Shown here: positions 9,726 through 62,936 of the stretch, piece by piece
Numbering within the stretch: position 1 is the stretch's first letter
How the letters are laid out: every line of letters begins with the position of its first letter
Origin: an uncultured bacterium
Lineage (GTDB): Bacteria > Fidelibacterota > Marinisomatia > Marinisomatales > TCS56
Reading direction: 5' to 3'
Assembly (NCBI GenBank): GCA_964439935.1
Contig: CAYTPW010000003.1
Span: 114,959 to 178,958 of the forward strand
DNA length: 64,000 bases
The notes under the pieces: model-generated
What the model was told of the DNA's origin: nothing
Databases searched by the model: none
The model's input: the letters and a program-made list of their open reading frames with translations, nothing else
Program-made: the position numbers and the translations under genes

Positions 9726-11042
9726 ATGAATAAAACTTATTATATCGAAACATATGGCTGTCAGATGAATGTGGCCGATAGCGAGTTGATTGCCAATCTG
9801 CTGCAGCAGGAGGGATTCCGGGAAACTGATGATATTCACAGCTCGGATGCGATTTTCGTCAATACCTGTTCGGTTCGAGAACATGCCGAAGATCGGGTTC
9901 ATTCCCGCCTGGGAACCTTCCGTAGCATCAAAGTGAAGAATCCGGGTGTGGTCATCGGTGTTTTAGGCTGTATGGCTCAGAGTCTGAAACATGACCTGCT
10001 GGAAAATAAATCCTATATTGATATCGTCCTGGGACCCGATTCTTATCGCCGTTTGCCGGAATTGCTGAACAGCCGGCAGGCGTCCACCAGTATTGTTGAT
10101 ACCAAACTGTCAAGATTCGAAGTTTATGACGGTCTATTTCCCAGCCGCCGGGAAGGTATCAATGCCTGGGTATCGATCATGCGTGGCTGTGATAAATTTT
10201 GTACTTTTTGTGTCGTTCCATTTACCCGGGGACGGGAACGGAGCCGTTCGGTGGACAGTGTTGTCACGGAAGTTCAGCAGGCGGTGGCTGATGGTTTCGT
10301 GGAAATAACGTTGTTGGGTCAGAATGTGAATTCCTACTCTCACAATGACAAAGGTTTTACACATCTGTTGACAGCCATAGCAGCCGTACCCGGTCTGAAG
10401 CGGATCAGGTATACTTCACCGCACCCCCAGGACATGACAGAAGATCTATTATACGTTATGGCGGATCACGAAAATATCTGTAATTCCATTCACCTGCCGC
10501 TCCAGGCCGGTGCCAATCGAATCCTGAAACGCATGAACCGAACCTACACCAGGGAGCATTTTATTGAACTGGTCGATCGGATTCGCACGATACTGCCGGA
10601 TGTGGGTCTTACAACCGATATCATAGTAGGCTTTCCCGGTGAAACCGATCAGGAATTTGGACAGACCCTTGAGCTCATGGAAGGCGTAAAATTCGATTCG
10701 GCATTCACATTTAAATATTCAGCTCGCAAAGGTACCAAAGCGGCTGAATACCAGGACCAGGTTAGTCCCCAAACCAGTCAGGATCGTTTGGAAATGTTAA
10801 TTAAATTACAGAAGCAGCATACTTTAGTCCGCAATCGTCGGGAAGTAGGTAAGATATCGACAGTACTGGTGGAGAAGGAGAGCAAGCGTTCGGCAGCTAT
10901 GTGGGCGGGTAGAACGGATGCCAATAAATGGGTAATTTTTAAAAAAGGTGGGGCCGGGATCAAAGATTTTGTTTCAGTGGAGATTACTGCCGCGCGCGGT
11001 GTAAGTTTGCATGGACATCTAATTGGAGAAAAGCGGAAATGA
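9726..11042 (+). CDS. miaB: tRNA-2-methylthio-N6-dimethylallyladenosine synthase MiaB
   Basis: UPF0004 N-domain (YIETYGCQMNVADSE), radical-SAM CDKFCTFC cluster, C-terminal TRAM domain. Confidence 0.9.
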   Translation: MNKTYYIETYGCQMNVADSELIANLLQQEGFRETDDIHSSDAIFVNTCSVREHAEDRVHSRLGTFRSIKVKNPGVVIGVLGCMAQSLKHDLLENKSYIDIVLGPDSYRRLPELLNSRQASTSIVDTKLSRFEVYDGLFPSRREGINAWVSIMRGCDKFCTFCVVPFTRGRERSRSVDSVVTEVQQAVADGFVEITLLGQNVNSYSHNDKGFTHLLTAIAAVPGLKRIRYTSPHPQDMTEDLLYVMADHENICNSIHLPLQAGANRILKRMNRTYTREHFIELVDRIRTILPDVGLTTDIIVGFPGETDQEFGQTLELMEGVKFDSAFTFKYSARKGTKAAEYQDQVSPQTSQDRLEMLIKLQKQHTLVRNRREVGKISTVLVEKESKRSAAMWAGRTDANKWVIFKKGGAGIKDFVSVEITAARGVSLHGHLIGEKRK

Positions 11043-12405: not shown

Positions 12406-13259
12406 TGAAAATCCGGCTGTTCCTTCCAGTTCTGCTTGGGTTTGCCTGCACCGTCGCCTTCGCCCAGGATTTACGCTTATATTTTTCGTTACTTCAGGAA
12501 GGGCGGGTAGCGGAAGTCCGGCGGTCTTTGCCGGATCTGTTGCGGCAGCATCCCAATAATCCCGGTGTCGCTTATCTCCACGCGGTAACGGTCACTGACG
12601 GTGATTCTTCCCTGCAACTGTATCAGGATATTATCCGGCGCTATCCGAAGAGTAGTTATGCCGCCGATGCGGCGATGAAAACCGGTGAATATCTCTATTC
12701 ACGGGGGCTCTATTCCCAGGCCAGCCGCCAGCTGCATTCAATACCTTTGAATTATCCCCAGTCCGCGCACATTCAGCGGGCGATGGATCTGATGGTCAAC
12801 AGCTATTTTGCAACCGGAGAGCTGGATAGTGCCGCTTATTACCTGGCCCGCTTCAAGCGGAAATTCCCCCGGCTGAATTATGAATACGGCATTCCCGGTC
12901 TGGAGGATGTGGCGATCCCGCCGCCGGAAGTCGAGCTGGTCAAGCTGGATCAGGATCAGGTGCAGCAGAAACTGCAGAACAGGCCGGCACCGAAGCAAAC
13001 GCCTCCAGTGTCAAAAACACCCCAACCATGGATCGTCCAAGTGGGAGCCTTCGGTAAAATTGAAAATGCCGAATCATTGCGATCGATGTTAGCCCAAAAT
13101 GGTTATTCGGTGGAAATCCATGAAGTTACTTCCAACAGCCGCCGCCTGCATGCCGTGCGGGTAACGCGTTATGCCACCCGGGAAGAGGCCAAGCGGATTG
13201 GGAGTGAACTGAACCGTAAATACGGGGTAAATTTCCTGGTCATGAATCGGCCGGAATAG
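12402..13259 (+). CDS. SPOR-domain (peptidoglycan-binding) protein with TPR-like N-region
   Basis: Signal peptide, proline-rich linker, and C-terminal SPOR-like block WIVQVGAFGKIENAESL...RVTRYATREEAKRIGSEL. Confidence 0.7.
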   Translation: MMKIRLFLPVLLGFACTVAFAQDLRLYFSLLQEGRVAEVRRSLPDLLRQHPNNPGVAYLHAVTVTDGDSSLQLYQDIIRRYPKSSYAADAAMKTGEYLYSRGLYSQASRQLHSIPLNYPQSAHIQRAMDLMVNSYFATGELDSAAYYLARFKRKFPRLNYEYGIPGLEDVAIPPPEVELVKLDQDQVQQKLQNRPAPKQTPPVSKTPQPWIVQVGAFGKIENAESLRSMLAQNGYSVEIHEVTSNSRRLHAVRVTRYATREEAKRIGSELNRKYGVNFLVMNRPE

Positions 13260-13296
13260 ATGGCTGATGGATGATGGATGATGGTTGATGGTTGAT
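13260..13296. repeat. Tandem heptamer repeat (ATGGNTG) x5
   Basis: Read directly from the sequence: atggctg atggatg atggatg atggttg atggttg at. Lies between the SPOR gene stop and tRNA-Sec. Confidence 0.8.
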
Positions 13297-13348: not shown

Positions 13349-13441
13349 TGGGAATGATTGCGCGGCTGGTGCCCGCCGCGGTCTTCAAAACCGTTGGGAC
13401 CTGCACACCAGGTCCGCTGGGTTCGATTCCCAGGCGTTCCC
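13349..13441 (+). tRNA. selC: tRNA-Sec (anticodon UCA)
   Basis: Manual fold. 8-position acceptor stem GGGAATGA/GCGTTCCC (7 pairs plus a terminal A.G). T arm CTGGG-TTCGATT-CCCAG. Anticodon arm GCGGT-CTTCAAA-ACCGT with anticodon TCA. 7-bp variable arm GGACCTG-CACAC-CAGGTCC. Discriminator G. CCA not encoded. About 93 nt. Confidence 0.85.
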
Positions 13442-13707
13442 GCTAAGTAAGTAACAAGCTAAAAGATAAAAGTCAAAAAGTTAATTAGCCTGTATTCCCT
13501 GAATCCCAATTTCCAATTCATCAGCAAAGATTCCCAGCCTGACCACCGTAGCCTTGGCGTAGGTGAGCGTTCCCGCTAGACTTAATATTCTATAAAACAG
13601 TAACTTAGTTTGTAATTGCCTGATTTTTCCAATTGTTGATTAGTGTTGCTTAGGATATTTATGTGAACTTTTGGTGTGCAATGCCGTCAAAAACGAATGC
13701 TAATTAG

Positions 13708-20362: not shown

Positions 20363-21058
20363 TTAAAACATTTTTTCCAGATACTTCAGCAGGTATTTGC
20401 CATCCGGCCGATCATTGGTATATTGACTAAAATATTTAAATCTCACTATACCGCCTTTATCCAGAATAAAAATTGTTGGTACATTTTGCTCAACAATCGT
20501 TCCGCCTCATTCTTCCCGGAATAACATCAATCCCTCGGAAACAGTGTGATCTTCATCGAACAGAACCGGCAGTTCCAGTTTAAAATTATCAGCTGAAAAT
20601 TCAAAAGTATGGGAAAAAAATTGCTGACAATATTCCGCCCACTCTTTTTGATTTTCTGTAACGCCATCCGGGTTAACCGGATTTTTCCAGCCTTCAATCG
20701 TTGCCAGACTAGTAGGGAAGGTTTCGATCCAGTGGCTGAGCGTATCGCGACTGTATGGTAAAATGAAATATATTTCCAGATCATATTTTTCACGCAGATT
20801 CTCCTGTTTATCAATTACCATCAATTCCAGGTATTGATATTGACAGATCGGGCACCAAACATCTGGAGTTACTCGGCCCCTGATAAATACCAGCATGCTG
20901 TTTTAATCTCCAGATCCGGGTAGCACTACCTGCTCACCGGTTGCAGATTTAAGTGTGATTTCAGGAAATTGTTCGTTTAACGTAATTGGATAAATATTAT
21001 CATTCTGACAGTTTGCCTGACATAGTAATAGTAAAATAATCAACATTAATGTTTGCAT
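20363..21058 (-). pseudogene. Secreted AhpC/TSA-redoxin-like thiol-disulfide oxidoreductase interrupted by in-frame TAA (20903-20905) and TGA (20507-20509)
   Basis: A single reading frame gives a signal peptide (MQTLMLIILLLLLCQANC), then FPEITLKSATGEQVVLPGSGD-TAA-NSMLVFIRGRVTPDVWCPICQ..., then LMLFREE-TGA-GGTIVEQNVPTIFILDKGGIVRFKY...KMF. Family-like sequence continues on both sides of both stops. Confidence 0.6.
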
Positions 21059-37644: not shown

Positions 37645-37745
37645 CAGTATTTATTCCAACTCATTTTGAATTCATCTGACTATGCTTTTACTACTAAATT
37701 TGTCCAGATCATTAGTTGAATAAACCATAAATAAGTGAGTTGATC

Positions 37746-39779
37746 ATGTCCCGACCTGTTAAAATAATGATATTTTCATGTCTTTTAATCCTGATTCAAT
37801 GCCAGTCACGATTATCTAAAGAACTAAGCATAACTGATGACATCAGAAAAAATACCGTAGCTGTGTTGGTAGAGAAATATGGCGAGGATAATCTTGAACG
37901 GATTGAGACTGGTGTCGGTCAGGTAGCTGGGCAATGGTTAGCAAGCGACGGCAGCTCAGATCAATTTCAGGAATTCTGTGTTACCAATTTTACTGTTGAT
38001 CAGAATGTATTGGAAACTTCCTTTGCGCAGTTAGAGGAATCGCTGGAAAATATCAGCGGTCACTTGACCGAAATGGGACGGGAATTGCGCTGGGACCTGG
38101 ATGTGAATACCCGGCCGTTGCTGCCGATCGATTATTTGTTGGGAAGCCTGAGTCTGGGCAGTCACCTGAATGATGATTTTTACACAACTAAGATAGCTTT
38201 CTGGGTGCTGCTGAATTACCCGGTAAAGGTGCTGAATGAATGCCTGACAGAGGGACAGGATTGGTCCCGTCAGAAATGGGCCGAAGTACGATTGGCCCAG
38301 CGTTTTGCGGTACGTGTCCCGGGGGAAATGAGTCAGGCTGTTCACGATGCCTATATCACGGGAGATAATTATATCAGTGGTTATAATATTTATCTGGGAA
38401 ATTTGCTGACTGAGGATGGTCGCAGGTTATTCCCGAAGGATTTGCGATTGATTTCTCACTGGGGCATCCGCGATGAGCTTAAAGCGCAATACGCACAGGA
38501 AGGCGGACTGGATCGGCAGCGGATGATTTACGATGTGATGGAGCGTATCATCACCCAGAAGATACCTGAAGTCGTTATCGATAATCCTGATGTCGATTGG
38601 ATTGTAGCCACTAATGAGGTTCGGGGTGCGAGTACCGATAATACCCCAGAACCAGATACCCGTTACCAGCACTTAGGCAATTTTTATCGGGCTGTAAAAC
38701 TGGCCGATCCCTATTATTCCGACTATCCAACTTTCGTGGAGCGTAGTTTTAATCAAGTACGGGAAATACCGGAAGAATCGGTGCGATCGCTGTTCACGGA
38801 ATTACTGTCTTCGGATGAATTTGGACGGATCGGTGAATTAATTAAGCAGCGGCTGGGGCGCGATCTGGAACCATTTGATATTTGGTACAAAGGTTTTCGC
38901 AGCCAGACGACTCCCGACGAAACCAAGCTGGATAAAATTACAGTAGCCAAATATCCCACAGCGGAAGTCTTCCGGTCCGATCTGCCAAATATCCTGATAA
39001 GTCTTGGATTCGATTATTCCACCGCTCAATTTCTCCACTCCAAAATTGAAGTCGACGCAGCCCGGGGGGTTGGCCATGCTATGGGTGCTGACCGCCGATC
39101 CGATAATGCCCACCTGCGAACCAGAGTTACCGAAAGCGGCATGGATTATAAAGGTTACAATATAGCAATCCATGAACTTGGACATAATGTTGAACAGGTT
39201 TTCAGCCTTAACCGGATTGATCATACTCTTTTACAAGGTGTCCCTAACACCGCTTTCACCGAAGCTTTTGCATTTGTTTTCCAGAGCCGCGACCTGGATT
39301 TGTTGGATTATGAAACACCGGTAAGCGACACTCCCGACTTTTACGCCCTTCACCGCTTATGGTCGGTCTGTGAAATTGGGGCAGTTGCTTTAGTTGATAT
39401 GGATGTCTGGCACTGGATGTACAATCATCCGGATTTTACTCCAGCCGAACTAAAAGTGGCGGTAATCGAAATCGCCCAGTCCATCTGGAACGAATTTTTC
39501 TACCCGGTTCTGGGTCATCAGGATGCTCCGATCCTGGCCATCTATTCCCATATGATCGACAATGGATTATATCTCCCTAATTATCCGCTGGGACATATAA
39601 TCGAATACCAGATCGAAGAATACATACACGGGAAAAATCTGGGCCAGGAAATGGAACGGATGTGTATAATTGGAAACCTAACGCCGGAGCTATGGATGCA
39701 GCAGGCGGTGGGGAGCTCGATTTCGGTTCAGCCGATCCTGGATGCTGCGCGTGAGGTTCTAGATAATATTACAATGTAA
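37746..39779 (+). CDS. Uncharacterised putative zinc metallopeptidase (gluzincin-like HExxH), probable lipoprotein
   Basis: Leader MIFSCLLILIQC. A single HExxH (IAIHELGHNVEQ) with a Glu about 30 aa downstream (NTAFTEAFAF). I could not recognise any family. Confidence 0.5.
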   Translation: MSRPVKIMIFSCLLILIQCQSRLSKELSITDDIRKNTVAVLVEKYGEDNLERIETGVGQVAGQWLASDGSSDQFQEFCVTNFTVDQNVLETSFAQLEESLENISGHLTEMGRELRWDLDVNTRPLLPIDYLLGSLSLGSHLNDDFYTTKIAFWVLLNYPVKVLNECLTEGQDWSRQKWAEVRLAQRFAVRVPGEMSQAVHDAYITGDNYISGYNIYLGNLLTEDGRRLFPKDLRLISHWGIRDELKAQYAQEGGLDRQRMIYDVMERIITQKIPEVVIDNPDVDWIVATNEVRGASTDNTPEPDTRYQHLGNFYRAVKLADPYYSDYPTFVERSFNQVREIPEESVRSLFTELLSSDEFGRIGELIKQRLGRDLEPFDIWYKGFRSQTTPDETKLDKITVAKYPTAEVFRSDLPNILISLGFDYSTAQFLHSKIEVDAARGVGHAMGADRRSDNAHLRTRVTESGMDYKGYNIAIHELGHNVEQVFSLNRIDHTLLQGVPNTAFTEAFAFVFQSRDLDLLDYETPVSDTPDFYALHRLWSVCEIGAVALVDMDVWHWMYNHPDFTPAELKVAVIEIAQSIWNEFFYPVLGHQDAPILAIYSHMIDNGLYLPNYPLGHIIEYQIEEYIHGKNLGQEMERMCIIGNLTPELWMQQAVGSSISVQPILDAAREVLDNITM

Positions 39780-46523: not shown

Positions 46524-47256
46524 GATCGGACCGATAAAAATCTATAGCTACGGTCTGGCGCTGGTAACAGCTTTCTACGTTGACTATTTTATTCTTCATC
46601 GGGAATTAAAGCGGCTGAAATATGATCCTCGTTTGGCAACTGATATAATATTCTGGGGAGCTATAGGGGGTATTCTTGGCTCTAAAATCTATTATTTAAT
46701 TGAAAATATTGCCGATGTAATCACGGACCCGATAGGGATTATCTTTTCTGGTTATGGTCTGGTATTCTGGGGGGGATTGATCGGCGGTACTCTGGGAGTA
46801 ACCTGGGTCCTGATCCGCAATAAACTGGACTGGTTGACTTTTGCCGATATAGTAGCTCCGCTACTGATCCTGGGTTATGCCATCGGACGCTGTGGATGCT
46901 TTATGAACGGTTGTTGCTATGGTGTAGAGACCAGTTTGCCATGGGGATTACATTTTCCCCATATGCCGGCCGGTATTCATGTACATCCAACCCAAGTGTA
47001 TGAATTGATAACCGGGTTGACAATATTCGCTATTTTGTGGAAACTGCGATTAAAAGTGAAATATACCGGAAATCTATTCTTCATTTATTTTATCCTGGCT
47101 GGTATCGAACGTTTTCTGATTGAATTTATACGCATCAATCCCAAGCTTTTATTTGGACTGACGGGAGCGCAGATCATCGCATTATTATTAATTGGAACCG
47201 GGATATATTTCCTGGTACGACCGATCGGAAAGGAATACGGAACACATTCGGTCTGA
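46504..47256 (+). CDS. lgt: Prolipoprotein diacylglyceryl transferase
   Basis: Lgt-like polytopic sequence (YGLALVTAF, GRCGCFMNGCCYG, HPTQVYE). 250 aa. Confidence 0.85.
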   Translation: MKQILLEIGPIKIYSYGLALVTAFYVDYFILHRELKRLKYDPRLATDIIFWGAIGGILGSKIYYLIENIADVITDPIGIIFSGYGLVFWGGLIGGTLGVTWVLIRNKLDWLTFADIVAPLLILGYAIGRCGCFMNGCCYGVETSLPWGLHFPHMPAGIHVHPTQVYELITGLTIFAILWKLRLKVKYTGNLFFIYFILAGIERFLIEFIRINPKLLFGLTGAQIIALLLIGTGIYFLVRPIGKEYGTHSV

Positions 47257-47272
47257 TTTTATTAGTATTATT

Positions 47273-48130
47273 ATGCGCGATTGGCTGATATATATTATAA
47301 TGGCAGTTGCTGTCCTTAACGGTCAAATTCAAACTTCAGTTTTGAATTATATTAGTTTAAAGCAATATTTTAACTCTGACCTTAATCCCAGATACATTGC
47401 TGTCGGTAGCGATGAGAAAATATTCTTACTGGACCCTGACAGTCGAACACTTGCTACCTTTAACAAAGATTACCAGGTGACCTATGCCGGAGGTTTCGGA
47501 CATGAGTTGGATGCTTTTTTCGATCCGGTCGATCTGGTAGTAAATAATTTGGAAGTGATTGTATGCGACCAGTCGGATAACCGACTGCTGTACTTTGATC
47601 GACAGCTAAATTATACCGGTTCAATTGACCTTTCGCAATTCGGTGAGAATTATAAGTATCCCTTTAAAATGATGGTTGATCCCTGGGGTGCTGTATTGGT
47701 GTATTTTGAATCCAGTAATTTAATTGGTCGGATCGCTAATACTGCTCAGCCTCCAGTGCCCCATATTGACCTGGAAAACCAGGCCGATCCAGTAAAATGT
47801 GTGACCGCAATGGCCATATCTGTCAAAGGTGAATTGGCTCTTTTATTACCCTGTCGCAGCCAACTTCGATTGTATAATCGTTTTGGTCGGCCGAGTGGTA
47901 TAGTTCCAGTTACTTTAGATGAACCGGAATTGCTGGTAAATTATTTGAATAATTGGATAGTAATAAATTCCGGTGGTGAATGGCAGATAATTCCTGGTAT
48001 GTCGATGGGGAATCTGAAGAATTTGACTCAAATTGACCATCCGATCCTAGATGCAGCCGTTTTTAATGAGCAACTGTATTTATTGACGGCCAAAGACATT
48101 ATTATCATCCGGTTTGAGATCAAGTCTTAA
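47273..48130 (+). CDS. Hypothetical exported protein (possible beta-propeller)
   Basis: ATG at 47273 gives a leader MRDWLIYIIMAVAVLNG. Repetitive beta-rich sequence. Function unknown. Confidence 0.4.
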   Translation: MRDWLIYIIMAVAVLNGQIQTSVLNYISLKQYFNSDLNPRYIAVGSDEKIFLLDPDSRTLATFNKDYQVTYAGGFGHELDAFFDPVDLVVNNLEVIVCDQSDNRLLYFDRQLNYTGSIDLSQFGENYKYPFKMMVDPWGAVLVYFESSNLIGRIANTAQPPVPHIDLENQADPVKCVTAMAISVKGELALLLPCRSQLRLYNRFGRPSGIVPVTLDEPELLVNYLNNWIVINSGGEWQIIPGMSMGNLKNLTQIDHPILDAAVFNEQLYLLTAKDIIIIRFEIKS

Positions 48131-51100
48131 ATCCATTCTGCTTCTGTTAGGCCTGGGTGTTGAATTGCTTTGGGCCGGATCATTTCAGATCATCCCAACC
48201 CGGGATACTGTCACAGTGGCAGCCAATGATTCTGTATTTATTCTAATTAATACACCGGTATTTGAAACAACAGTTCAATTATTCCGCAACGGTCGGTGGA
48301 TTGAGGATTATTCCATAGATCCTTTAGTTGGCCGGATTGTTTTGCACACTACCGAACCGGATTCCAGCCAGCATATTTGTACTTATTCCTATCTAAGTCC
48401 CGCTTTACCACTCACTGTTGGTCCCAGATATCTGACATTACCCCTGTTGACGGAATTAACCAGGGAGCCGGATGTCATATCGATCCTGCCTCAACAGCCG
48501 ATGGCAGCTGCTAGCCGCGATGAATTGTATACTGCCGGTAGCATCTATCGGAGCGTAGAATTATCACCATTTGGTGGGACCGATTTTAGTGGTGGTCTTC
48601 GGCTACAGTTGCAGGGCCGCCTAACCGATGATATTCAAGTTAGTGGTGTGCTGGCTGATCAGAGTCTACCAATTCAACCGGAAGGAAACACCCAGACACT
48701 GGAAGAAATCGATCAGGTATACCTGACGGTCAAGCACCCAACCTGGAACGTAACGGCAGGTGATATAAATTTTACTTTGAACAGTGGGAAATTCCTGAAG
48801 ATTGATCGGAAATTGGTTGGTTTAAAAGGTGCTTTAGCTCAACCAGGATCCCATGGTGAAGCGGTGTATTCCGCTTCAAAAGGGAATTATCGCTCTATGA
48901 CTTTTAAAGGTACCGAAGGGTCCCAGGGTCCCTATTTGCTGGCTTCCGAAACAGGCAGCCGGGATATAATTGTCATTGCTGGCTCTGAGCGCGTGTACGT
49001 TGATGGAAATAGATTAATCCGCGGTGAGAATAACGATTATATAATCGATTATTCGACTGGTGAAATTTACTTTACCGCCCAGCGCCTGATACACAGTGAC
49101 AGTGATATTTTGGTGGAATTTCAGTATTCGGATTTCAGGTATAATCGCAATTTGGTCGGGGCCAGCTGGAAGATGCAACCCATCGAACGTGGTGAGGTGA
49201 CCATAGCTTATCTAAATGAGTATGATAATATCTCTGCTGGAAGTTTAAATCTATCCACTGCTGTGCAGGACAGTATGGCCCAGGCGGGAGACCGGGATGT
49301 ATGTATTTCGGGAGCTGTGGTTGATTCTGCCGGTGATTATTATGTTAACAATGGTTTCTATATTTACTGGACTATTGATCCTCCCGACAGCGCGGTTCAG
49401 CGGTACAGTGTAACCTTTCAGAATGATGTCGCAAATGGCGCCTATATTCGCAAAGTAACTGATACAGGACAGTTATATTATTCCTATGTTCCAGAAAATG
49501 AACGTCAGTTATACCAGGACTTATACAGCCCTATTCAATTGCTGGATCGCCCTGAAAAGCAACAGGTTATACAATTGTCGGCTACCTATCGTTCATCAGA
49601 GAAATTCGTCATCGATACAGAGATCAGTATGTCGGACTATGATATCAATCGTCTCTCCAACAGGAACGATGATGACAACTTAGGCTGGGCTTACAATATT
49701 AAGTTGGCCGGAGCTGAATTGATTTTACTTCCTGGCTGGAATTTTAATTATCATTTAGTCAACTGGGGCAGAGGGAAACAATACAAAGCTTTGCAGCGTG
49801 AACGAACCGCTCGATTTGACCGGGACTGGAATATAAATTCCGATCAGATCGGTAAAGAAAATATGCTGACAGCAGGTTTTGGTTTTAAGCGCAACACAAC
49901 GTTTGATTTGAATATGGATTGGTCGCATTATCAGGTGCAGGACCGGTACAAAAATCGATTTCTGGCAACGACCGCTGGTTCAACTGACTGGATACCGTTG
50001 TATTCGGGTCGGATAAGTAGGATGGAATCACCAGGCGAATTTCTGGTTCAATCGACTGCTAAAATTCAAGTATTGCCTGGCTGGATTCATCCATACTACG
50101 AATACAACGGGGAACTCAACCGATCGGTCACCTCATTTGAGCACCATACCTCCGGTCTGGAACTGGCTGGAAAGACAGGCCGGGGTTCCCTGGGAATCGG
50201 TCAACGGATCGATAGGGCCGAGATCGATACTTCCAATTCCGGTTTGGAACGGATCAGCCGGGGCTATTTTGGTTCGATGGATTTGGATGGTCGCTCCGGA
50301 TCAGGTTGGAATTACCGTTTGATTTTTCGAAAGCGAATCAAAACGGAATTTACTGAAGACAGGGAATTTGATTTCGAACTATTACAAACCAATCTTTCCT
50401 TTAATAACCGAATGCAACCTTTGCGGTGGGATATGAAGGTGAAATTAGAAGAAACATATACCGAAAGTCGGTCAACGGTTTATGATTCTGTGGGCATTGG
50501 ATTGGGTAATTATCGCTATGATCGACAGTTCAATGAATATATAGCTGATCCTAACGGTGGATTTATTGCCTACCAGGTGCTGATCGGCGATCGCCATCCG
50601 ACCACGCGATTCGATGGAATCCAGCGTGCTCAAATAGATTTTAGTAAGACTAGAATGAAGCAGCTGAAAGGGGTAACAGTCCGATTGGAAATGCGTTCAG
50701 AATATCGTGGTAGCCGTTTCAATACGATCCGGTTCCTGAAACCGAACCTGAACGATTTGGGTATTACCCGTGCTCAGTGGAATCTGTACGGCGAATTCGA
50801 TTATCGACCATTTCGCATCGGACGCAGATTTCGAGCCTGGAACAGAAGCATCCGAGATTTAAATGGCCTGGATCCCCGTGGGGGTGATTTACGACGCGAC
50901 CAGGAAATCGGTTTGGAAGTCAATGAAACTTTAATGGATGGTTTTTTGGGAATCTTCAAATGGCATTTAAAAGAACTGACGGTCAATTCAGCTTTCGTGA
51001 ATCAGCGTAATCGTGTTGTATCAGGTGACTGGCTGGAAGGTGGCCTCAAATGGCATCCGAATCAGGACTGGCAATGTGAAAGCACAATCCAGTTGGGTCA

Positions 51101-51416
51101 CAGCAGCGTTGATCATCATGAACAGAATTATCGAGCCAATGCCTACGGTATCAAGCTGGATGTTTTAAGATTTATCGGTCCCCGGGGTCGTCTACAGTCA
51201 CGCCTGGAATGGTTCCAGGTTGGTACAGGTGGGTTAACAGCTTTACCACCGGAAGCTTTAAACGGACTGGCAGTTGGACGGTCCACGAAACTCAATTTGA
51301 CCGGACAGTTTTTACTTGGTGGAAATCTATCGATTAATATCAGCGGGAATTATATTGCTGATAACCGTTATAATAACCTGTTCACATTTACCGGAGAGGT
51401 TCGTGCTTTTTTCTAG
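48114..51416 (+). CDS. Large (1100 aa) putative outer-membrane beta-barrel protein, family unassigned
   Basis: Signal peptide, beta-rich Y/G/N/R composition, and a C-terminal beta-signal-like end (NNLFTFTGEVRAFF, terminal Phe). TTG start overlapping the upstream gene. Confidence 0.5.
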   Translation: MRSSLKSILLLLGLGVELLWAGSFQIIPTRDTVTVAANDSVFILINTPVFETTVQLFRNGRWIEDYSIDPLVGRIVLHTTEPDSSQHICTYSYLSPALPLTVGPRYLTLPLLTELTREPDVISILPQQPMAAASRDELYTAGSIYRSVELSPFGGTDFSGGLRLQLQGRLTDDIQVSGVLADQSLPIQPEGNTQTLEEIDQVYLTVKHPTWNVTAGDINFTLNSGKFLKIDRKLVGLKGALAQPGSHGEAVYSASKGNYRSMTFKGTEGSQGPYLLASETGSRDIIVIAGSERVYVDGNRLIRGENNDYIIDYSTGEIYFTAQRLIHSDSDILVEFQYSDFRYNRNLVGASWKMQPIERGEVTIAYLNEYDNISAGSLNLSTAVQDSMAQAGDRDVCISGAVVDSAGDYYVNNGFYIYWTIDPPDSAVQRYSVTFQNDVANGAYIRKVTDTGQLYYSYVPENERQLYQDLYSPIQLLDRPEKQQVIQLSATYRSSEKFVIDTEISMSDYDINRLSNRNDDDNLGWAYNIKLAGAELILLPGWNFNYHLVNWGRGKQYKALQRERTARFDRDWNINSDQIGKENMLTAGFGFKRNTTFDLNMDWSHYQVQDRYKNRFLATTAGSTDWIPLYSGRISRMESPGEFLVQSTAKIQVLPGWIHPYYEYNGELNRSVTSFEHHTSGLELAGKTGRGSLGIGQRIDRAEIDTSNSGLERISRGYFGSMDLDGRSGSGWNYRLIFRKRIKTEFTEDREFDFELLQTNLSFNNRMQPLRWDMKVKLEETYTESRSTVYDSVGIGLGNYRYDRQFNEYIADPNGGFIAYQVLIGDRHPTTRFDGIQRAQIDFSKTRMKQLKGVTVRLEMRSEYRGSRFNTIRFLKPNLNDLGITRAQWNLYGEFDYRPFRIGRRFRAWNRSIRDLNGLDPRGGDLRRDQEIGLEVNETLMDGFLGIFKWHLKELTVNSAFVNQRNRVVSGDWLEGGLKWHPNQDWQCESTIQLGHSSVDHHEQNYRANAYGIKLDVLRFIGPRGRLQSRLEWFQVGTGGLTALPPEALNGLAVGRSTKLNLTGQFLLGGNLSINISGNYIADNRYNNLFTFTGEVRAFF

Positions 51417-52773
51417 ATTACTGATTGTTTTCGCCAGCTTAAGTATACTGATCGGACAATCAATTCAGATCGATGTTCGTGATGGTACTGAAAGCTTTGT
51501 CGCCGGTGACTCGCTGTCAGTTACGAGGCAACTTGATTCACTGCTGAACCGTTATGATGATCCGAGTATCCAATACCGACTGGAACACCTTGACCAGCAT
51601 AAAAATCTGGGAGCGGTCTATTCAGTTGTTAAGAGTCGGATCCAAATTGATTCGCTAGTTTTCTCTGAACGGAATTATTTCACACCCGGCATACAGCAAC
51701 GGTTGTTCAGTCGGTTGGTGGGTACCCGACCATGGAGCGAGACGCAGCGGACAATGCGCAATATCATCAACACCTATTCATTCTTAAACCAAAATACTCA
51801 ATATTCATTAGGTCGCTTTGGTGGCGACCAACTGGCGGCAGTAGTATCAGCGGCACCTGATTTTGCCAGCCATTTCAGCGGTATTATTGGATTATCAAAC
51901 GACGATCGCATGGGGTGGCAGGCAACCGGACAACTGGATTTGCATTTGGAGAATGCTTGGAAGACAGCCGGAACAGTTGATATAAACTGGCGGCGAAAAG
52001 ATAACCTGTCCCAGAATATTAATTTAGCGTTTGAGGAACCATATTTGCTGGCTCTTCCGATTGGGATTAGCGCGGCCTTTCGCCAAAACCTAGATCAGGG
52101 TTTGTATGCCCAGCGTGAGACTAGTGCTGGTATTATCGTACCCATGGCCGTGCAAGGACGCTGGCAGATCGGGATGGATCAATTTAAAGTGATCCCGACC
52201 GCTAAAGGTGATTCGACTGGGATCCTGCCCCGAAAAGGCCGATTACTGTACCTGAACGGAGCTGGTGATCGTAGGGATGATCGCTGGCGGCCGCGTTCGG
52301 GAATTGTCTGGACTCTGTACCTGGCTTTCGGAGAAAACCGTACAGCCGGATCCACGGACCGGCTTGGTCGTTACCGGGTGGAAATCGATGCTTACGGGCG
52401 ATTAACGCAATCCTGGTTATTTCATCCGACACTCTGGTTGAAAGGTTCGGTGAACCGCGGTTTAGAGCATGTTGCCGAGCAGGTTCGCTATGGCGGCGCC
52501 GCGGTCTTGCGTGGTTATCAGGAAGATTTTTTCACCAGTGATTGGGTGTTAATTCCCCAGCTCGAAATGGTTTATCTGGCGGGGAATAATTTACGTCTTT
52601 TTTCATTTTTGGATATTGCACTGCAGGATGCCTACGATCAGGTTCCAATCGGGTATGGAATCGGCTTGGTTCAACGTACACCAGGCAGCTTGATCGAAGT
52701 CAGCTACGGATTGGCACGTGGGGACCGGTTAGCTTTAGGAAAACTGCATTTTAGCGTCGTAACTGAATTGTGA
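51403..52773 (+). CDS. Omp85/BamA-superfamily (surface antigen D15-like) outer-membrane protein with short N-terminal region
   Basis: GTG at 51403 gives a signal-like N-terminus (VLFSRLLIVFASLSILIGQ). YGGAAVLRGYQEDFF resembles the conserved Omp85 loop-6 (V/I)RG(F/Y) motif. There are only about 150 aa before the barrel-like region. Confidence 0.5.
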   Translation: MLFSRLLIVFASLSILIGQSIQIDVRDGTESFVAGDSLSVTRQLDSLLNRYDDPSIQYRLEHLDQHKNLGAVYSVVKSRIQIDSLVFSERNYFTPGIQQRLFSRLVGTRPWSETQRTMRNIINTYSFLNQNTQYSLGRFGGDQLAAVVSAAPDFASHFSGIIGLSNDDRMGWQATGQLDLHLENAWKTAGTVDINWRRKDNLSQNINLAFEEPYLLALPIGISAAFRQNLDQGLYAQRETSAGIIVPMAVQGRWQIGMDQFKVIPTAKGDSTGILPRKGRLLYLNGAGDRRDDRWRPRSGIVWTLYLAFGENRTAGSTDRLGRYRVEIDAYGRLTQSWLFHPTLWLKGSVNRGLEHVAEQVRYGGAAVLRGYQEDFFTSDWVLIPQLEMVYLAGNNLRLFSFLDIALQDAYDQVPIGYGIGLVQRTPGSLIEVSYGLARGDRLALGKLHFSVVTEL

Positions 52774-61898: not shown

Positions 61899-62936
61899 AT
61901 GAAAAAACTGATTATTGGAACCAGTCTATTTTTTTTAATTGCCTGTAGCACAAAATCACCCCAATTTCCCTGGGCGAGCTTATCACTGCAAGAAGCTCAG
62001 CAGGTAGCTGGCGATAAATTGATAATGCTCGATTTTTATACCGAATGGTGAAGTTGGTGTAAACGGCTGGATGCCGATGTATTTCCAGATTCAAAGATCA
62101 TTGATTTTGCCACCGAAAATCTAATTAGCCTTAAAATTGATGCTGAAAAAGACCAGGGACCGGTTCTGCGTGATCGGTTTAATCCACCCGGTTTTCCCAC
62201 TGTAATCATTATTAATCCGGATGGCTCCGAAGTGGATCGTATTGTGGGCTATCGACCGGTTGAGGAATTTCTGAGTGAATTAAAGCGGATCAAGCGCAAC
62301 GAAGGAACTATTGATGACCTGAGCCATCGTTTAGCGAATTTCCCGGAGAATGATTCCCTGATCCAGCTATTAGCTGAAAAATATGAGGATCGGGGAGATC
62401 TGGAAGCTGCGCTGCCACATTGGGAAAGACTGGCTGTGCTGTCAGCTGTTCAAAGAGATCTGGCGCATTATAAGATTGCTCATACTTCCAGCCGGATCGA
62501 AAAAACAGCTGATCCGCTGATCGAGTTTCTTGCATCAAATCCCTCCGGGTCTTTTACCGCAGATGCGTATCGATCTCTGCGAAGCTTTTATCGCAGTATA
62601 AAAGATACCAGCACCGAAGTTCAAACCTATATTGATTTTATTGCCTATCTGGATCGTAAAAATGAAATCAGTCCTGGTGATCTCAATGGTTATGCCTGGC
62701 GAATGACGCAATTGGAGAAAAATCTTGAGGATGCACTTTTAAAAATCAGGATTGCTGTTGAATTAACGGCCGAGGGTGAAGCAGAGGAACGGGCTGGAAT
62801 AATGGATACGGAAGCAGAAGTATTATGGAAACTCGGTCGCATTTCCGATGCTGTAGCCGTAATTGAAAAATGCATCGAATTACAGCCAGAAGATAGTTAT
62901 TTTAAAGAACAAAAGGAGAAGTTCTTAAAAAGCTGA
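61899..62936 (+). CDS. Selenoprotein: lipoprotein with thioredoxin fold (W-U-S-W-C redox motif, Sec at codon 51 = TGA 62049-62051) and C-terminal TPR-like domain
   Basis: Track ORFs 61866..62051 and 62232..62936 share one frame, and the TGA is the only stop between them. Read-through gives DFYTEW-U-SWCKRLD...GFPTVIIINPDGSEVDRIVGY, a complete Trx fold. GGAG lies 5 nt before ATG 61899. Lipobox FLIAC. tRNA-Sec is present at 13349. Confidence 0.75.
62064..62076 (+). promoter_or_regulatory. Candidate bacterial SECIS apical hairpin
   Basis: CGGC-UGGAU-GCCG stem-loop starts 13 nt after the UGA, with loop G residues 18-19 nt downstream. The stem is short and I could only weakly extend the lower stem. 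Confidence 0.35.

Follow-up and report, generated by a model that had tools for sequence, protein, structure and literature searches.

The window analysed here, a stretch of 64,000 nucleotides (64 kb) of the metagenomic contig CAYTPW010000003.1, carries on its plus strand, at 13350–13442, a class II tRNA gene of 93 nt, counting the discriminator base G73. This gene is a genuine, conventional selC, the gene for the selenocysteine (Sec)-specific tRNA (tRNA-Sec); it belongs, as a standard member, to a family that has been characterised thoroughly, and routine tools find it at once. The same window holds a client gene in which the UGA of codon 51 is followed by a Sec insertion sequence (SECIS) element. 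Judged from these sequences and their homologs, the feature is very probably the functional selC of a bacterium belonging to Fidelibacterota (formerly Marinimicrobia/SAR406).

Three independent methods gave the same answer as to the identity of the gene. ARAGORN reported a tRNA-SeC with the anticodon TCA at 13350–13443 as its sole tRNA call in the window. In the Rfam covariance-model scan, the tRNA-Sec family RF01852 matched 13350–13441 over model positions 1–91 of 91, with 68.3 bits against a gathering score of 47 (E = 7.9e-12), and this was the sole Rfam hit in the window. The unconstrained minimum free energy (MFE) fold of the 94 nt, computed for this single sequence, was the cloverleaf itself (−44.7 kcal/mol, z = −2.69). 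In the clan competition of Rfam, overlapping matches within the tRNA clan (CL00001) are reduced to the best one; since the tRNA-Sec model was kept over the generic tRNA model, the gene is not better described as an ordinary tRNA-Ser or tRNA-Leu. An earlier note on this DNA had described a class II tRNA of about 93 nt with the loop CUUCAAA and the anticodon UCA, had taken a long variable arm together with this anticodon to be diagnostic of selC, and had named beforehand a covariance-model preference for tRNA-Ser or tRNA-Leu as refuting. The description is borne out by ARAGORN, Rfam, and the MFE fold. The comparison of models came out for tRNA-Sec: the Rfam match lies 21 bits above its threshold and wins the clan, and ARAGORN types the gene as SeC. 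The boundaries had been placed at 13349–13441, which is one base too far to the left, because 13349 is the T preceding G1.

The acceptor 5′ strand GGGAAUGA (13350–13357, 8 positions) pairs with GCGUUCCC at 13434–13441. The 8-position acceptor stem proposed earlier holds good as eight layers, but only seven of them are Watson–Crick or GU pairs: the eighth layer is a non-Watson–Crick A8.G85 mismatch, and both A8 and G85 are invariant in four aligned sequences (the window tRNA and three relatives described below). A UU linker between the acceptor 5′ strand and the D arm is followed by the latter (13360–13376), which consists of a 6-bp stem, GCG[C]GGC/GCCCGC, and a 4-nt loop, UGGU; the stem pairs are G11-C27, C12-G26, G13-C25, G15-C24, G16-C23, and C17-G22, and C14 (13363) is bulged. 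The anticodon arm (13378–13394) has a 5-bp stem and the 7-nt loop CUUCAAA at 13383–13389, in which UCA occupies 13385–13387 and A37 lies on its 3′ side. Next come the long variable arm (13397–13415), with a 7-bp stem (GGACCUG/CAGGUCC) and a 5-nt loop, and the T arm (13417–13433), with a 5-bp stem (CUGGG/CCCAG) and the loop UUCGAUU. The discriminator G73 is at 13442, the 14th base after the T loop. The 5-bp T stem, the 7-bp variable stem, and the discriminator G had all been noticed previously and are confirmed here. The 5-bp T stem, the following 8 nt, and then G73 constitute the 13-layer acceptor/T helix of the 8/5 arrangement. CCA is not encoded, as CTA comes directly after the discriminator.

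We compared this tRNA with known tRNA-Sec molecules. The hallmarks of bacterial tRNA-Sec are a 13-layer 8/5 acceptor/T helix, a 6-bp D stem with a 4-nt loop, a very long variable arm, G73, the anticodon UCA, and a length of 90–101 nt (PMC5330540); every one of them was checked against the window sequence and was found there. For a reference set, a collection was scanned with the generic pattern GGTCTTCAAAACC...GGGTTCGATTCCC, which gave at least 120 loci from many phyla; ARAGORN typed 114 of their tRNAs as SeC, and the 112 distinct sequences were used. Among the matches listed, position 8 is non-Watson–Crick in 71% of these 112 bacterial tRNA-Sec genes, and the stretch from the 5′ end to the anticodon stem is one nucleotide longer, as it is here, in 60 of the 112, a count in which the extra nucleotide is not localised. 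In the same set, G73 is present in 111 genes and CCA is encoded in 84; the published value for encoded CCA is 93% of bacterial tRNA-Sec genes (PMC5330540). Thus, with a non-Watson–Crick position 8 and the extra nucleotide both common among the reference genes, the window tRNA is typical.

Two comparisons with described types lead to the same view. The window tRNA shares with the E. coli selC type (RF01852; PMC5330540) the 8+5 helix, the D arm, the variable arm, the CUUCAAA loop, G73, and the length, whereas the unencoded CCA, the A.G eighth layer, the D-stem bulge, and the lack of an adjoining selA or selB distinguish it. These differences are all within known variation. The variants with a 12-bp acceptor/T stem (the 7/5 fold of the Cloacimonetes type and forms related to it; PMC5330540) resemble it in coming from uncultured or candidate lineages and in having bulged nucleotides, among them a D-stem bulge at position 13a reported for Clostridiales. 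However, the window tRNA has 13 nucleotides between the T loop and G73, the canonical 8/5 count, and therefore is not a 7/5 variant. It was also considered whether A8.G85, the D-stem bulge, or the missing CCA might define a variant class of tRNA-Sec, and this was ruled out by the reference set and PMC5330540. The feature is of an already known kind, and nothing separates this tRNA from canonical tRNA-Sec.

The reference set contained, among the matches listed, three near-identical tRNA-Sec loci (L075, L091, and L123). The closest named relative of the tRNA among these matches is L123, from Candidatus Neomarinimicrobiota NIOZ-UU68, which belongs to the phylum Fidelibacterota according to the NCBI taxonomy. 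In the alignment of the window tRNA with the three relatives, the overall identity was 92%, and all 30 cloverleaf pairs were kept in all four sequences (120 of 120 pair cells paired). A clear feature of the variable arm is that five of its seven pairs show double compensatory changes among the four sequences with 100% of the cells paired, as in GGGACCUG/CAGGUCC versus UCCCCGG/CCGGGGA. In the D stem, C12-G26 becomes U12.G26 in two relatives, and the bulged position carries C in the window tRNA and A in its three relatives, as expected for an unpaired base. The covariation score of the tRNA was 0.256 as compared with 0.093 for shuffled data (0/500), and slid registers gave at most 0.11. As far as can be judged from these alignments, related genomes preserve the fold of the tRNA through compensatory substitutions.

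The position of the gene is also conserved. By tblastn (44–73% amino-acid identity), the upstream order in the relatives was found to be an M23 peptidase, MiaB, LapA, a LapB-like TPR protein, a SPOR protein, and then the tRNA. The block from MiaB to SPOR is present in 3 of the 3 relatives; the M23 peptidase is partly cut by the locus ends in L075 and L091. In L123, a convergent gene for a protein with a type IX secretion system (T9SS) tail was found downstream of the tRNA, likewise by tblastn. This conserved chromosomal position indicates that the tRNA gene is a vertically inherited core gene, and neither contamination nor a mobile copy.

Some observations on the tRNA and its upstream region can be added. 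A36-A37 in tRNA-Sec is the context of an N6-isopentenyladenosine (i6A)-type modification. The miaB gene (9726–11042; NCBIfam TIGR01574, 514 bits) lies on the same strand 2.3 kb upstream of the tRNA-Sec gene, and the miaB–selC linkage recurs in all three relatives. MiaB is the tRNA i6A37 methylthiotransferase and serves many tRNAs; the linkage is therefore probably coincidental. A heptad tandem repeat, GATGGAT (13259–13296; 5.4 copies, 93% matches), comes directly after the stop codon of the SPOR gene and 54 nt upstream of the tRNA, and none is seen in the upstream sequence shown for the three relatives.

The client gene is located at 61899–62936 on the plus strand as a 345-codon open reading frame (ORF) on read-through of a TGA. 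Its product is predicted to be a lipoprotein; the N-terminal domain has the thioredoxin fold, and the C-terminal one is TPR-like. The TGA at 62049–62051 is codon 51 and encodes the first position of a UxxC redox motif, W-U-S-W-C, in the context LDFYTEW-U-SWCKRLD; the thioredoxin-type Pfam domains at aa 35–129 run across this codon. A database search gave 387 homologs, which fall into two populations: full-length WCxWC proteins and N-terminally truncated calls of 234–300 aa that start downstream of the motif. The truncated calls are what gene callers produce when they stop at the TGA. The public calls of the client gene itself are of this kind, namely 50 aa plus 234 aa (Logan) and a 234-aa protein (NCBI). 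A metagenome scan yielded 79 homologous loci (L124–L202), among which 75 have a codon aligned to residue 51: this codon is TGA in 53, TGC in 12, and TGT in 10. The window therefore has, in the gene at 61899–62936, a selenoprotein gene that shows a Cys/Sec pair and has TGA-containing orthologs. No NCBIfam model reached its cutoff for the client, the best being a domain-level TsoB/DsbD match (61.6 bits versus 805).

The SECIS element, an extended stem-loop reaching back to the UGA, was found at 62049–62093 on the plus strand (MFE −11.7 kcal/mol). Its apical hairpin, CGGC-UGGAU-GCCG (62064–62076), has a loop that starts 16 nt after the UGA. This hairpin is fully paired in 42 of the 53 TGA genes as compared with 2 of the 22 Cys genes (Fisher p = 1.6e-8, uncorrected for phylogeny), and RNAalifold independently picked the same hairpin from a 44-sequence alignment. 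In this alignment, the central pairs 23-33 and 24-32 switch among GC, GU, AU, and UA with no broken cells; in the loop, the U and the first G never vary, and conservation is at least 90% at the second G and at the A. The covariation score was 0.337 versus 0.160 for shuffled data (0/500), with slid registers giving at most 0.10. The substitutions alter the encoded residues, from R-L-D-A to R-L-D-V, L-L-D-A, or Q-L-D-A; thus, the RNA pairing is kept at the expense of the protein sequence.

The element was also compared with the published model of the bacterial SECIS (bSECIS), which has an apical loop of 3–9 nt, an upper stem of 4–16 bp, a distance of 16–37 nt from the UGA to the loop, a G at one of the first two loop positions, usually followed by G or U, and an MFE of −7.5 kcal/mol or lower (PMC13188914). 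The window element agrees with this model on 4 of 4 counts. The loop UGGAU is 5 nt long on the 4-bp stem CGGC/GCCG, which is 5 bp in most homologs through a U-A pair; the spacing of 16 nt (62052–62067) is at the lower limit of the range; and a G at loop position 2 is followed by another G. Recoding at 62049 had been proposed in the earlier note, and the Pfam domains spanning the TGA, the 53 TGA versus 22 Cys loci, and the covarying hairpin on its 3′ side all speak for it. On this comparative evidence, we regard the TGA at 62049 as a real Sec codon and the thioredoxin–TPR lipoprotein family as mostly a selenoprotein family in marine metagenomes (53 TGA versus 22 Cys loci).

The client can be set beside the thioredoxin-fold UxxC selenoproteins known from marine metagenomes (PMC1088965, PMC13188914). 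In both, Sec replaces the first Cys of CxxC, Cys homologs exist, and the bSECIS lies inside the coding sequence directly downstream. The client differs from them in that a DsbD-gamma/DsbH-like thioredoxin domain is fused to a TPR-like C-terminal domain in a protein of the lipoprotein type. Apart from this, nine distant TGA members of the family (L174, L176, L181, L182, L187, L193, L197, L200, and L201) have no hairpin at +16; inspection by eye suggested another hairpin a few nucleotides further downstream in these loci, for example GACCAGUUGGUC or GACACGGUCGUGUU. The shifted hairpin is possibly a second form of SECIS within this family.

The tRNA and its client suggest the following course of events. 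The tRNA would be transcribed, perhaps by read-through from the upstream operon, and its 5′ end would be matured by RNase P. A scan around the tRNA found no sigma-70 promoter-like site or intrinsic terminator on the tRNA strand; apart from the convergent peptidase gene's terminator, it picked up only a weak promoter-like site on the minus strand. In the relatives, the tRNA stands closely behind the SPOR gene. The missing promoter-like site on this strand and the proximity to SPOR make co-transcription with the upstream operon and RNase P processing plausible. Because CCA is not encoded, it would be added post-transcriptionally. SerRS would charge the tRNA with serine, recognising the long variable arm and G73, and SelA would convert the product to Sec-tRNA-Sec with selenophosphate made by SelD. 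SelB would then bind the 13-layer acceptor/T helix and the SECIS apical loop and deliver the tRNA to the ribosome, where UGA-51 of the thioredoxin-like lipoprotein would be read as Sec. That the tRNA is serylated, converted by SelA, and delivered by SelB and not by EF-Tu, we infer from its structural identity elements and from the established bacterial pathway.

Several points weigh against this reading of a functional selC with its client. The tRNA comparison is small (four sequences), and only the variable arm and one D-stem pair vary in it; the other helices of the tRNA are supported by conservation and the covariance model, with no covariation within the lineage. Folded as a single sequence, the SECIS gave no significant result (z = −0.37 and −1.53), and the support for this element comes from the comparison of homologs. 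The window was assembled from a metagenome, and close to the tRNA there are breaks in two independent short-read assemblies. Finally, the machinery of Sec biosynthesis and delivery is assumed for the host. Pfam annotation covered all window ORFs of at least 150 aa, and flanking extensions were found with MraZ and a 684-aa glycosyltransferase as queries; neither these window ORFs nor the called genes in about 9 kb to the left and about 7.5 kb to the right include selA, selB, or selD. A different view would be that selC is a relic, the tRNA being intact while selA, selB, or selD has been lost and the TGA at 62049 truncates the protein. The absence of Sec machinery genes from the approximately 80 kb examined, a redoxin gene in the window that is decaying through nonsense mutations, one of them a TGA (described below), and the listing of only an 'orphan' SelD for three single-cell genomes of SAR406 (PMC5029168) would all be in line with such a loss. 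Nevertheless, we consider a relic improbable. The sel genes are often unlinked to selC, so that a lack of them in 80 kb carries little weight. Every pair of the tRNA is intact, and the tRNA matches that of relatives whose proteins are 44–73% identical, the client frame is intact on both sides of the TGA with a SECIS that agrees with the model throughout, and the TGA and the hairpin are kept together in 42 other loci, with compensatory changes; recoding must therefore be under continuing selection in the lineage.

The functional reading also has to be weighed against two other accounts of how UGA is used. The tRNA might be a tRNA-Sec-like UGA suppressor, or a molecule of the allo-tRNA type, that inserts Ser, Cys, or another residue without SelA or SelB. 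Non-canonical tRNA-Sec-like tRNAs are known in bacteria, and the mismatch at the eighth acceptor layer and the bulge in the D stem could be taken as their marks; however, the mismatch is in the majority and the extra nucleotide is common among the 112 bacterial tRNA-Sec genes, among the matches listed, and the full 13-layer 8/5 geometry, G73, the 6-bp D stem with its 4-nt loop, and UCA are all present. General UGA suppression would be harmful where 37% of the ORFs end in TGA, and the link between the in-frame UGA and a SECIS hairpin is what characterises delivery by SelB; a suppressor thus appears very unlikely. Least probable of all is a reassigned code in which TGA is Trp or Gly (tables 4 and 25) and the client position is simply Trp. 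Two full-length database homologs, P0008 and P0014, do carry W at the residue-51 column, but in their DNA this position is an in-frame stop (in the context W*SWCKRLDAD), and the W residues come from the gene caller's choice of code. In every homolog without TGA, the column is Cys and never Trp. The stop codons of 43 window ORFs are TAA in 20, TGA in 16 (37%), and TAG in 7, and TGA occurs in frame once in 18,569 codons of the window versus 262 TGG. This usage excludes a code with TGA reassigned, and the account is already refuted in practice. A conserved Trp gives way to TGA at one place only, and the gene there is broken by a TAA as well.

This gene is the redoxin mentioned above. The earlier note advised that any other in-frame TGA be re-examined. 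A systematic scan left one further candidate outside known genes, at 20509, which was judged not to be Sec. All other read-through candidates of the scan were discarded, as they overlap real genes in other frames. The remaining one lies in an interrupted gene on the minus strand (21076 to 20363) for a secreted, AhpC/TSA-like redoxin with a WCPIC motif. The gene is interrupted by a TAA (20905–20903) and a TGA (20509–20507), and its Pfam domain spans the TGA. Among 52 uninterrupted homologs, the TAA column holds Lys, Asn, or Ser, and the TGA column holds a Trp (EEWGGT) that is at least 90% conserved. Each of the two lesions is a nonsense change of one base (AAA to TAA and TGG to TGA), and the gene is otherwise well conserved. 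Sec at 20509, for example as a resolving Sec of the redoxin, was rejected on account of the Trp in the homologs and the TAA in the same gene. Judging from these homologs, the redoxin gene is not a selenoprotein gene; it is a pseudogene of recent origin, or else an artefact of the assembly or the strain.

As for the significance of these results, Sec decoding, the 8/5 tRNA-Sec fold, and thioredoxin-fold UxxC selenoproteins are all textbook knowledge. Little is added biologically; at most, a working Sec trait would be indicated for at least part of Fidelibacterota, in contrast to the earlier survey in which SAR406 single-cell genomes were scored with orphan SelD only (PMC5029168). The genome needs Sec-aware gene calling, as the client lipoprotein is split or truncated in public gene calls, and dozens of its Marinimicrobia homologs are likewise truncated at the N-terminus. 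At the same time, of the two in-frame TGAs, that at 62049 is Sec and that at 20509 a nonsense lesion; the presence of tRNA-Sec therefore does not justify reading every TGA as Sec. The practical value lies in the correct annotation of the client and in a clean example, within the window, of a TGA that is not Sec.

An interrupted duplicate of the tRNA 3′ end was found downstream of the gene, at 13529–13578 on the plus strand. It consists of two exact repeats, 21 nt in all, in the same order with a 29-nt insert between them: the 9-nt sequence GATTCCCAG at 13425–13433 recurs at 13529–13537, and the 12-nt sequence GCGTTCCCGCTA at 13434–13445 recurs at 13567–13578, the two copies being 133 nt apart. 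The 12-mer occurs only at these two places in the 64 kb, against 0.15 expected. The downstream duplicate is absent in the three relatives (L075, L091, and L123), and among the matches listed a comparable nearby recurrence of at least 12 nt was seen in 2 of 120 other selC loci (L098 and L110). The approximately 121 nt between the 12-nt repeats contain no ORF, no integrase, and no cargo genes, and the downstream gene encodes the conserved syntenic T9SS-tail protein. Hence, of the marks of an attachment-site scar, a direct repeat of the tRNA 3′ end flanking DNA is present, and an integrase with cargo is absent. In E. coli, selC is a classic integration target, for example of LEE (the enterocyte effacement locus) and other islands and of phages (PMC6174562, PMC7545054). 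The window resembles these islands in having a direct repeat of the tRNA 3′ end downstream of an intact gene, like attL/attR; it differs from them in that only about 121 nt are enclosed, integrase and cargo are missing, and the downstream copy is split by the 29-nt insert.

By analogy with what tRNA-targeting integrases leave behind, the duplicate is likely a recombination or integration scar; alternatively, it may be a partial duplication of the tRNA. Since there is no integrase or cargo, it is at most a scar, not an island, and deserves only a minor note. Two assembly breaks lie close by, one on each side of the tRNA 3′ half and the intergenic segment. A Logan contig of SRR8146443 ends at about 13393 (by coordinate arithmetic), and the first base of one from SRR8146442 is exactly 13572, a position within the downstream 12-nt repeat. 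For the break at about 13393, tRNA k-mers that co-occurring relatives have in common offer a ready explanation, and both breaks fit shared tRNA k-mers, population heterogeneity at the site, or both. A more far-reaching idea, which we put forward tentatively and think doubtful, is that the repeats are the footprint of a tRNA-Sec-targeting integrative element in Fidelibacterota and that the site is still polymorphic in the sampled population; if so, the role of selC as an integration hot spot would extend from Enterobacteria to an uncultured marine phylum.

The remaining content of the window (GC content about 44%) consists of housekeeping and envelope genes, such as mraZ/mraW and those for sigma-70, MiaB, LepA, Lgt, RNase R, and AccA, together with several peptidases and T9SS-sorted proteins, as assigned by Pfam. 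The homologs come from sources named Candidatus Marinimicrobia, Fidelibacterota, or Neomarinimicrobiota. The approximately 9 kb to the left of the window are occupied by the dcw cluster, and the approximately 7.5 kb to the right contain genes for GFA, an M14 peptidase, DUF512, and Der. Four ORFs of 679, 312, 1100, and 485 aa (37740–39779; 47192–52773) gave no Pfam match even at E 0.01, and those of 312, 1100, and 485 aa form a same-strand cluster between lgt and the RNase R gene.

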